This document shows positions 33,001 through 35,879 of a stretch of DNA of 35,879 nucleotides, in pieces; within the stretch, counting starts at the first letter, position 1; every line of letters begins with the position of its first letter. The DNA comes from a virus. Lineage: Duplodnaviria > Heunggongvirae > Uroviricota > Caudoviricetes. The position numbers were made by a program. Location: the IMG/VR virus record IMGVR_UViG_2548877009_000012; one strand, given 5' to 3'.

Positions 33001-35879
33001 TGTCGGGCGGTGCTGCCGGCTGGGTGGGGGAGGGTAAGGCAAAACCCCTGACGAAGTTTGATTTTGAATCCATCACCTTCAGTCATGCGAAGGTGTCGGC
33101 CATTGCGGTACTGACGGAAGAATTGATCCGTTTTTCCAGTCCGGCTGCTGATGCACTGGTCCGTAATGCGCTGGCGGAAGCGGTGGTGGCGCGTCTGGAT
33201 ACAGACTTTGTGGACCCGAAAAAAGCGGCGGTGGCAGATGTCTCCCCGGCGTCCATCACCCATGATGTGAAGGGCACGGCATCAAGCGGTAACCCGGATG
33301 CGGATGCAGAGGCGGCGTTTGGACAGTTTGTGGCAGCAAACCTGCAGCCCACCGGTGCGGTCTGGCTGATGTCCAGCACCAATGCCCTGGCGCTGTCCAT
33401 GCGTAAAAATGCGCTGGGTCAGAAAGAATACCCGGACATGACCCTGCTGGGTGGCTCCTTCCAGGGGCTGCCGGTGATTGTCTCCCAGTACGTGGGTGAT
33501 CAGCTGGTGCTGGTGAATGCCCCGGATATTTATCTGGCGGATGACGGCGGCGTGGCAGTGGATATGTCCCGCGAGGCATCACTGGAAATGCAGTCTGAGC
33601 CGACCGGCGACAGTACCACGCCGTCGCCGGTGGAGCTGGTTTCCATGTTCCAGACAGGCAGCGTGGCCATCCGTGCGGAGCGCTGGATCAACTGGCGTCG
33701 TCGCCGTACCGCGGCGGTGGCGGTGATCACCGGAGTGAACTATGGCAGTGCGTCCGGCGGCTGAGTCTGATAAGGAGGACGGGAGGCGTGTGCCTCCCGT
33801 AACAGGTTATGGCAAAGATCCGATATCTGCAGGGCACGCATGATGCCCGGGCCGGGGATATCCGTGATGTGGCACAGCCGTGTGCGGAGGTGCTGGTTCG
33901 CCTGGGAAAGGCGGAGTACATCACGGTGCGACGTCCGGCAGGTCAGAAAAAGAAACGTGATGCGGAGCATGGCGAATGTGGAACCTTTTACGGCGAACCC
34001 GAAAAAACCAGAAATCAGGACGTGACGTAAGAGAGGCGGGCTGGACCAGCCTGTTTCAGGCGGTGGCTGAGCCCTTTTCCGGCGCCTGGCAGCAGGGCGT
34101 GAAAGCCGATCCTGAAGCCGTCCTCTCCTTTCATGCGGTGTTTGCATGTATTTCGCTGATATCCCAGGATATCGCCAAAATGCGGCTGCGTCTTATGCAG
34201 ACGGATGCGCAGGGGATACGCAGGGAAACGCGCCGGGGGGATATTGCCCGCCTCTGTCGTCGTCCCAACGCCCAGCAGAACCGCATCCAGTTTTTTGAAC
34301 TGTGGCTGAACGCCAAACTGCGTCACGGCAATACGGTGGTGCTGAAAATCCGTAATGCCCGGGGGCAGATCAAAGAACTGCGTATTCTGGACTGGAACCG
34401 GGTTGAACCTCTGGTGGCGGATGACGGCGAGGTGTTCTACCGCATCACGCCGGACCGGAACTGCGGGATCACTGAGGCGGTGACGGTGCCTGCCCGGGAA
34501 GTGATCCACGACCGGTTTAACTGTTTTTTTCATCCGCTTATAGGGTTGCCGCCGGTGTATGCCGCCGGGCTGGCGGCCACGCAGGGGCATCATATTCAGG
34601 AAAATTCGACGTCTTTTTTCAGAAATGGCGGCAGGCCGTCCGGGGTGATTGAGATCCCCGGCAGTATTACGGAAGAAAATGCGAAAAAACTGAAGAGCAA
34701 CTGGGACAGCGGGTATACAGGCGAAAATGCGGGGAAAACGGCCATTCTGAGCAACGGGGCAAAATACAACCCCACGACGTTTTCACCGGTGGATTCGCAG
34801 ACGGTGGAACAACTGAAGATGACCGCTGAAATTGTCTGTTCGGTGTTCCGTGTCCCGGCCTACAAGATTGGCGTGGGACAACCGCCTTCCAGTGACAACG
34901 TGGAGGCGCTGGAGCAGCAGTATTATTCCCAGTGCCTGCAGACGCTGATTGAGTCCATTGAACTGTTACTGGATGAGGCGCTGGAAACGGGGGAAAACGA
35001 GAGTACGGAATTTGATGTCACCACGCTGCTGAGAATGGACAGTGAGCGGCGCATGAAAACGCTGGGGGATGCGGTGAAAAATACGCTTCTCACGCCCAAT
35101 GAGGCCCGTAAACGGGAGAACCTGCCGCCCCTGGCCGGCGGTGATGCACTGTATCTTCAGCAGCAGAACTACAGTCTGGAAGCGTTGTCCCGCCGTGATG
35201 CCCGTGAAGATCCGTTCGCGTCGTCCGGTAAAACAGCTTCCGTGCCTCAGGCGGTCGCTGCCTCTGACGGTAATAAGGCAATCACTGAAACAGAGCATGA
35301 TGCGGTGAAGGCGATGTTCAGGGGGATTCTGAAAAAATGAATGAACGTGAACTGTCCATTATCCGTGCGCTGGGTGAAGAATTTTCCGCAGTGCTGGCGG
35401 ATTTACAGCGCACATTTGAGGGGAAAATAGCCGCGCAGGCACAAACGTTTGAAGAAAAACTGGCTTCCCTGTCTGTGGTATTACAGAAGTGCGTGACGGG
35501 CGATGATGTGCGTCCGATGCTTGAGCAGATGGTGAAGGAGGCGGTAAGCCATATTCCTGTTCCGCGCGACGGTCGTGACTATGATCCCGATGTTCTGCAG
35601 AAGGCGGTGAATGATGCTGTCGGGAAAATACCGGTACCGGCGAACGGTAAAAGTATTACTCCCGATGATGTGCGTCCGATGATTGAGCAGATGGTGAAGG
35701 AGGCGGTAAGCCATATTCCTGTTCCGCGCGACGGTCGTGACTATGATCCCGATGTTCTGCAGAAGGCGGTGAATGATGCTGTCGCAAATATTCCGCTGCC
35801 GGCAGACGGTAAAAGTATCACCCCGGATGATGTGCATCCGATGCTTGAACAGATGGTGAAGGAGGCGGTAAGCCATATT

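Follow-up and report, generated by a model that had tools for sequence, protein, structure and literature searches.

The last open reading frame (ORF) of a 35,879-nucleotide (nt) viral DNA, IMG/VR record IMGVR_UViG_2548877009_000012 (Caudoviricetes; the whole of this stretch is called the window here), begins at position 35337 on the stop codon of a phage portal gene and runs off the end of the window within an array of 162-bp tandem repeats. The best explanation, in which we place moderate confidence, is that it is a genuine, independent late gene encoding a fibre-like virion protein with a stalk of variable length, an accessory glycan-binding fibre of the head or neck. The family to which the gene belongs is large and uncharacterised. 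It is made up of fibre-like proteins encoded next to portals that share their gene structure and domain architecture; its members form a ladder of repeat copy numbers and keep a conserved synteny, and the fusion to the portal seen in some relatives is derived. In other respects the gene is a rather ordinary structural gene of a phage, of modest biological interest and of some practical use for annotating prophages. The features of the window that bear on it are as follows.

33976-35340, plus strand: HK97-family portal gene, complete, 454 amino acids (aa) (Pfam, TIGR01537)
35320-35326, plus strand: AGGGGGA with a G5 run (35321-35325), Shine-Dalgarno-like (junction alignment)
35332-35340, plus strand: A6 run followed by the ATGA stop/start overlap (sequence)
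35337-35879, plus strand: 5' part of the fibre-like protein gene, 181 codons, cut by the window end (translation)
35337-35501, plus strand: N-terminal helical segment of ~55 aa (MNERELSIIRALGEEF...), presumed attachment or oligomerisation region (predicted helices)
35501-35879, plus strand: 162-bp tandem repeat, 2.3 copies (35501-35662, 35663-35824 and 35825-35879)
35481-35876, minus strand: antisense shadow ORF of 131 aa, not a gene (codon-aligned antisense frame)

The portal stop TGA (35338-35340) and the ATG of the downstream ORF (35337-35339) overlap as ATGA, with the G5 run located 12 nt upstream. In phage 2851 the junction alignment revealed one extra G at this place (G6 versus G5 at 35321-35325); in some relatives this single added G joins the portal and downstream ORFs into one. 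A pattern allowing both G5 and G6 was used to scan IMG/VR, and of 122 junctions classified 79 were G5 (split) and 43 were G6 (fused), so that 65 % were split. The exact 454-aa portal of the window was present on 472 contigs and the fused 859-aa protein of phage 2851 on 806. A neighbour-joining tree was built from 650 nt of junction flanks from which the G-run had been removed (67 haplotype/state combinations). The root and every deep clade of this tree were G5, with G6 in two clades and a few singleton reversions; a minimum of 7 changes between G5 and G6 was required, against 12-16 when the labels were shuffled. On this tree, the two-gene arrangement is the inferred root state, and the portal fusion is derived and confined to two clades.

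Loci from other enterobacterial genera were retrieved using the single C-terminal domain of the family as query. The ATGA overlap (...aaATGAatgaacg...) is kept in 11 of the 11 loci, where the portal is of full length and the gene lies in another frame than the portal; the position of the G-run reads AGAGGA. Judged from these alignments, the fused form is derived and goes back to the insertion of one nucleotide (+1) into a homopolymer that is specific to its lineage. The stop of the gene in the same 11 loci overlaps the start of the adaptor gene (ATGA or GTGA). The gene from 35337 would thus be translationally coupled to the upstream portal through the ATGA overlap and, in relatives, to the downstream head-tail adaptor gene as well. 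In Erwinia the gene is separate and stands right behind the portal after an 82-nt gap, and in two metagenomic relatives it is a separate ORF directly after the portal with overlaps of 14 and 8 nt; adaptor and head-closure genes follow in all three.

The same picture was obtained from more distant proteins. A HMMER search of 1.84 billion representatives returned 5,682 homologues (627 at E <= 1e-30), mostly of 250-700 aa; of 67 diverse homologues, just one had a portal domain. Most of the 150 best representatives are likewise 250-700 aa long, and they start with a methionine and the same helix as the window ORF, for example MNERELSMIKVLGEEV, while the C-terminal domain lies at the extreme C-terminus in 144 of 149 of the best representatives. 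The earlier note on this DNA, which was made from the sequence alone, had taken the ORF for a structural gene of its own that begins at the portal stop, and the start methionine and N-terminal helix shared with distant stand-alone homologues agree with this. A 461-aa full-length homologue has no portal-domain match in Pfam or NCBIfam, and it matches PHROG 2271 only at positions 527-859, the portal part of that profile being 1-451. Furthermore, an intact downstream ORF is about as frequent among unique G5 alleles (45 of 52) as among G6 alleles (17 of 23; Fisher p = 0.20). The split root state, the separate homologues and the intact downstream ORF together mean that the label 'pseudogene' is not justified.

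The repeat array was called by Tandem Repeats Finder with a period of 162, 2.3 copies, 93 % matches and a score of 660, far beyond chance, and it was the one long-period array found (35501-35879). The earlier note had described an ORF with at least 2.3 copies of a 54-aa repeat that runs off the window end, as was indeed found. Its 'perfect 162-bp in-frame tandem repeats' are real, the unit being 54 codons in frame with the ORF from 35337, but they are not perfect: copies 1 and 2 are mismatched at 11 of 162 nt (93.2 % identity), with four of the differences synonymous and seven non-synonymous. Copy 3 is 94.5 % identical to copy 1 and 92.7 % identical to copy 2, and the longest exact repeat in the array measures 102 bp (35521/35683). 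The 54-aa unit consists of two 27-aa half-repeats, DDVRPMLEQMVKEAVSHIPVPRDGRDY and DPDVLQKAVNDAVxxIPxPAxGKSxTP, each of which is a helix-loop with the loop motif P-x-P-x-[DN]-G-[KR].

No contig was found with downstream sequence identical to the window, the best match being 528 of 543 nt. When relatives were followed past 35879, as the earlier note had advised, no early stop was met, and the closest (98.2 % over 543 nt) run on to 461 aa. Complete downstream ORFs form a ladder of 245/246, 299, 353, 405/407, 461, 515 and 569 aa, in steps of 54 aa that correspond to about one to seven units, and the proneness to copy-number variation suggested beforehand was thus confirmed by counting across related prophages. 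Among loci with an identical portal, the downstream ORFs span 299-569 aa; the eight such loci have 299, 353, 407 (four loci) or 569 aa, and one of the eight is disrupted. With an in-frame unit and a copy number that is polymorphic among identical-portal loci, the array is a coding variable-number tandem repeat. In locus L132 (5366-6364), which has the identical portal, the downstream gene is broken into a 165-codon open frame from the ATG and a separate 151-aa remnant; genuine inactivation of the fibre-like gene therefore does occur in some prophages.

In a comparison of 60 unique alleles, units that hold the same rank in the arrays of different loci were 86.8 % alike on average, whereas different units inside one locus were 83.3 % alike. 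As same-position units across loci resemble each other more than units within a locus do, the array is, on this comparison, old and not strongly homogenised, with whole units often gained or lost. Concerted evolution as the main force was rejected on the same figures. On the other hand, identity reaches 95 % or more in 44 of 154 pairs of adjacent units, a sign of sporadic, recent duplication; of the 'recent expansion or concerted evolution' proposed earlier, this much stands. The whole-unit steps in length would likely stem from unequal recombination or slippage between units and between the many related prophages of one genome. The stalk changes in length faster than the adjacent portal alters one residue.

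Full-length relatives of 245-569 aa consist of an N-terminal helix, a helix-loop stalk and a conserved C-terminal domain of ~140 aa. AlphaFold2 was run on the monomer with a 67-sequence alignment, replacing a single-sequence model with a predicted local distance difference test score (pLDDT) of 39.6, and it predicted an N-terminal helix, repeats of a helix of 13-17 aa and a loop of 12 aa at moderate confidence, and a beta-rich C-terminal domain with a pLDDT of ~97. The N-terminal ~55 residues, predicted to be helical, recur as the same N-terminus in stand-alone homologues of other genera. The last ~50 residues of the C-terminal domain form a CBM5/12-type carbohydrate-binding module (CBM), preceded by a beta-sandwich for which no clear structural relative was found. 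The profile of this domain matches PDB CBM5/12 domains of chitin deacetylases and chitinases (E from 2.6e-4), and its ~50 C-terminal residues superpose on CBM5/12 modules at 1.8-2.9 A, with the fold and exposed aromatics of such modules. The motif Y-x-x-G-D-x-V-x-W-x-G-x-x-W is shared with chitin-binding modules of this type (PDB 2RTS, 2D49 and ChiB 1E15). Pfam CBM_5_12 (PF02839) is matched at E <= 1e-3 in 21 of 67 relatives (best 1.1e-7), and precomputed matches exist for many relatives.

The neighbours found in BFVD are mostly collagen-repeat or CBM5/12 phage proteins, and in some family members a collagen tract takes the place of the helical repeats before the same C-terminal domain, a replacement that implies a trimer. 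The protein has an amphipathic N-terminal helix, a stalk of 54-aa units and, in full-length relatives, a beta-rich C-terminal domain with a CBM5/12-type end, and on these models it is an elongated, probably trimeric fibre with a glycan-binding-type tip. Matches to Pfam TetR_C_35, DUF4244, FliG_N and iPGM_N, faint matches to QatB and matches to PDB designed helical repeats were rejected as spurious; they fall on the helix-loop repeats, include no individually significant stretch and reflect a generic helical-repeat composition.

Some known phage proteins offer parallels. The neck whiskers of T4, made of fibritin (wac), are segmented helical fibres whose gene lies beside the neck genes and which have an accessory role in environment sensing or adhesion. 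Unlike fibritin, the window protein has neither a foldon nor sequence similarity to it, and while the fibritin segments have a heptad periodicity, the window protein has hhxx hydrophobics in helices of 13-17 residues separated by 12-residue loops of Pro, Gly and Asp. In phi29, gp8.5 is an accessory, non-essential fibre encoded in the head gene cluster, a trimer with a helix-turn-helix supercoil stalk that promotes ordered attachment to the cell wall (PMC7602432). The stalk of the window protein is likewise a tandem helix-loop repeat. In contrast to gp8.5, however, its N-terminus is a long helix and a beta-tulip capsid-binding base was not found, its tip is CBM5/12-like, and it is known here from sequence and a monomer model; no sequence or fold match between the two was detected. 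SPP1 gp12 and other collagen-like fibres of phage heads or tails, among them the prophage EPcl proteins of enterohaemorrhagic E. coli, are trimers in which the stalk varies in length by whole repeats (PMC3368898; PMC7602432). Some family members resemble SPP1 gp12 and the collagen fibres in having collagen repeats before the same C-terminal domain, whereas the E. coli protein lacks a Gly-X-Y collagen tract. The EPcl proteins are the product of a different gene, being side-tail-fibre homologues with PfN/PfC domains that are encoded in the tail region. The position right after, or fused to, the portal C-terminus recalls long portals with a C-terminal extension (the barrel of P22 gp1) and minor head proteins encoded beside the portal (SPP1 gp7/MuF); in contrast to these, the window protein has no MuF domain and no single long helix as in P22 gp1, and where relatives are fused, the fusion stems from one inserted nucleotide and is a derived state that is atypical of the family.

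By analogy with these systems, the protein most likely forms a trimer that stands on the outer surface of the head or neck and serves as an accessory fibre for adhesion, binding surface polysaccharide. This placement is favoured because of the fixed position of the gene between portal and adaptor and the likeness to gp8.5, gp12 and fibritin. Of the 'decoration or scaffold domains' suggested by the earlier note, decoration is plausible in the sense of a fibre with a carbohydrate-binding tip, but nothing was found in support of a scaffold. Several points weigh against our reading. A literature search for virion proteomics or structures of BP-4795, 2851 and Sakai Sp-type heads found none, nor was a solved virion with this head module found. 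The E. coli protein scores 20.4-20.9 bits against PF02839, under the gathering threshold of 26.2, and its stalk was modelled at moderate confidence only and as a monomer. Within the family, conservation is highest in the C-terminal domain, which is not the pattern of typical fibre tips that determine host range. Lastly, in two E. coli clades and in a distant 1,237-aa protein (P0303) the chain is joined to the portal C-terminus in what look like viable fusions. In solved portals that C-terminus is inside the capsid, and the recurrent fusion agrees no less with an internal position bound to the portal than with an external one.

The protein might accordingly be an internal, portal-associated head protein, with its N-terminal helix docked on the portal crown at a place like that of SPP1 gp7/MuF proteins or the P22 portal barrel, that is retained or ejected before the DNA and whose tip binds the GlcNAc-containing backbone of peptidoglycan in the periplasm. 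We judge this unlikely, though deserving of serious attention. The gene lies directly behind the portal in every relative examined, a covalent link to the portal C-terminus is tolerated (806 contigs carry the fused 859-aa protein of phage 2851) and arose again in the distant lineage of P0303, and a highly conserved C-terminus would be expected for a conserved ligand such as peptidoglycan. However, the neighbours of the C-terminal module are external proteins, namely tail fibres, collagen-like phage fibres and a fibre-like baseplate component of a contractile injection system, and a freely variable stalk of 1-7 units that can be exchanged for collagen is typical of exposed fibres. Moreover, a protein tethered to the portal could not be ejected, and overlapping genes on the same strand fuse easily by a 1-nt indel, so that fusions are no proof of contact. 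That the product is instead a tail or side fibre, encoded in the head module by chance, is decidedly improbable. Matches to tail-fibre PHROGs occur in 14 of 67 family members and the fold resembles tail fibres of phages 7-7-1, Milano and Pa193, but these matches are limited to the CBM-like tip or collagen segments, the known N-terminal attachment domains of tail fibres were not detected, and the gene always lies between portal and head-tail adaptor, several kb and about ten genes from the tail-tip genes. If the protein is an adhesion fibre, as we favour, it could influence the adsorption of Shiga-toxin (Stx) phages, their host range or their retention at mucosa, and the recurrent portal fusions provide an experimental handle on its location in the virion.

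The databases hold another view, according to which a frameshift has inactivated a portal gene of ~915 aa and left the ORF at 35337 behind as its C-terminal half, so that the prophage is head-defective. In each of the 3 split loci checked, RefSeq merges the portal and the downstream ORF into a single pseudogene, 'phage portal protein, frameshifted', and Japanese Stx-phage records carry a 'portal protein (pseudogene)'. The records of BP-4795 and 1717 contain two 'portal proteins', and that of phage 2851 has one portal ORF of 859 aa; the only names given to the gene in deposited phage genomes are 'portal protein', 'pseudogene' and 'hypothetical protein'. PHROG 2271 ('portal protein', 859 positions) covers both the portal and the downstream half, fused ORFs are abundant, and in a study of the Sakai prophages the portals of Sp6, Sp9 and Sp12 were scored as defective (PMC2669165). 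Despite that score, Sp9 DNA was packaged and Sp6 was transferred (PMC2669165). The 454-aa portal fills the whole of the portal models, matching Pfam Phage_portal (PF04860) at 1.8e-81 over profile positions 2-321 of 321 and TIGR01537 portal_HK97 at 4e-105, and it has the length of the portals of other genera (444-458 aa). Given in addition the split state at the root and in all 11 loci of other genera, the stand-alone distant homologues, the predominance of split junctions and a downstream ORF that is not degraded in split loci, we accord this view hardly any credence. The labels 'portal protein' and 'frameshifted pseudogene' are annotation artefacts, which arise because a lineage-specific additional G in the G5 run fuses both ORFs in some E. 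coli prophages. As an intact two-gene arrangement has been labelled a pseudogene, 'defective' calls on Stx and lambdoid prophages may be biased.

It is also quite doubtful that the G5/G6 run works as a reversible, heritable switch (a contingency locus) between a free and a portal-tethered fibre, both functional, which would give two virion architectures per lineage; at least 7 changes between G5 and G6 are needed on the tree of 67 junction haplotypes, two haplotypes carry both G5 and G6, and two identical downstream alleles were found in both contexts. Low-level ribosomal or transcriptional slippage at the G tract could also mix free and tethered fibre in one burst. Programmed -1 ribosomal frameshifting or transcriptional slippage at G GGG G or A AAA AAU GA, by which a minor portal-fibre fusion would tether a few fibres, is highly improbable. 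In its favour, no stop interrupts the -1 frame between 35301 and the ATG, tRNAs could re-pair on GGGG and on the AAAAAA before the UGA stop, the Shine-Dalgarno-like AGGGGG lies upstream, and a fused product is evidently tolerated in nature. The junction, however, lacks a canonical X XXY YYZ heptamer, no stimulatory RNA structure was found (folding z = -1.09), and the Erwinia portal and fibre genes are 82 nt apart. Both homopolymer runs are absent in other genera (...cagaggatt...accaaATGA), so that a frameshift site is not a conserved feature of the family. With no heptamer, structure or conservation, a programmed -1 site was rejected. The 131-aa minus-strand ORF at 35481-35876 was correctly taken by the earlier note for the antisense reading of the repeats. 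It is a codon-aligned shadow frame that ends at the sense TTA at 35481; since TTA, CTA and TCA codons are missing from the sense repeats, this frame is open in every relative too (median 340 codons).

The source DNA is an Stx1-type converting lambdoid prophage, in which the following further genes were placed.

20012-20968: ribosome-inactivating-protein (Shiga toxin A-type) ORF
22119-23891: NanS-p-like esterase (SASA + DUF6645), after the toxin ORFs
29476-30105: terminase small subunit
30102-31763: terminase large subunit
31827-33764: prohead protease (Peptidase_S78) and HK97-type major capsid protein in one 645-aa ORF, with a coiled-coil linker
33809-34030: 73-aa ORF behind the capsid gene, sharing 55 nt with the start of the portal gene

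An 89-aa ORF at ~20975-21244, after the toxin A-type ORF, reads as a Shiga-toxin B subunit, presumably that of Stx1. The location of the protease/capsid ORF (31827-33764) before the portal and the fusion of its two parts are unusual, and both are kept in relatives (L125, 660 aa). The 73-aa ORF at 33809-34030 had no Pfam match; it is conserved, with equivalents of 68-85 aa in the distant relatives L124 and L125. Close relatives of the region were present in 1,245 of 5,426 complete E. coli genomes, with 9,975 places in all and a median of 5 per positive genome, and the region is also found in Stx phages such as BP-4795, 1717 and 2851.

Database records of the family contained further irregularities. 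Homologues from Klebsiella, Salmonella and Enterobacter (P0324, P0380, P0388 and others) bear the name 'phage gp6-like head-tail connector protein, partial'. The name suggests that they are fused to the adaptor, but this was rejected as the sequences contain no adaptor segment, and the name is a second error, taken from the neighbouring gene. Hundreds of entries of 540-660 aa named 'phage portal protein, partial' (P0001-P0120) come from contigs of 1.6-5 kb, and short-read assemblies thus evidently break in or near this repeat-bearing gene of multi-copy prophages. In the record of phage vB_EcoS_phi330 (L005, PV189401.1), the portal is 444 aa, the fibre gene is in two pieces (376 + 83 aa) and the gp10-like gene is split, and the additional frame breaks in the head-tail region suggest homopolymer sequencing errors. 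A 3-kb contig (L135, NZ_DATCVJ010000643.1) within a metagenome-assembled genome of 'Chitinophaga sp.' carries an enterobacterial-type portal and fibre gene; its 67 % identity to the query C-terminal domain equals that of enterobacterial loci, and it is probably a binning contaminant. Outside the late region, short tandem repeats were observed in the early part of the window at 15399-15475, 10096-10128 and 10654-10709 (a 30-bp period in ~2 copies, a 16-bp period in 2 copies and GAACAG in 4.5 copies). The 30-bp repeats lie inside an ORF at 15207-15929 and could be origin iterons.

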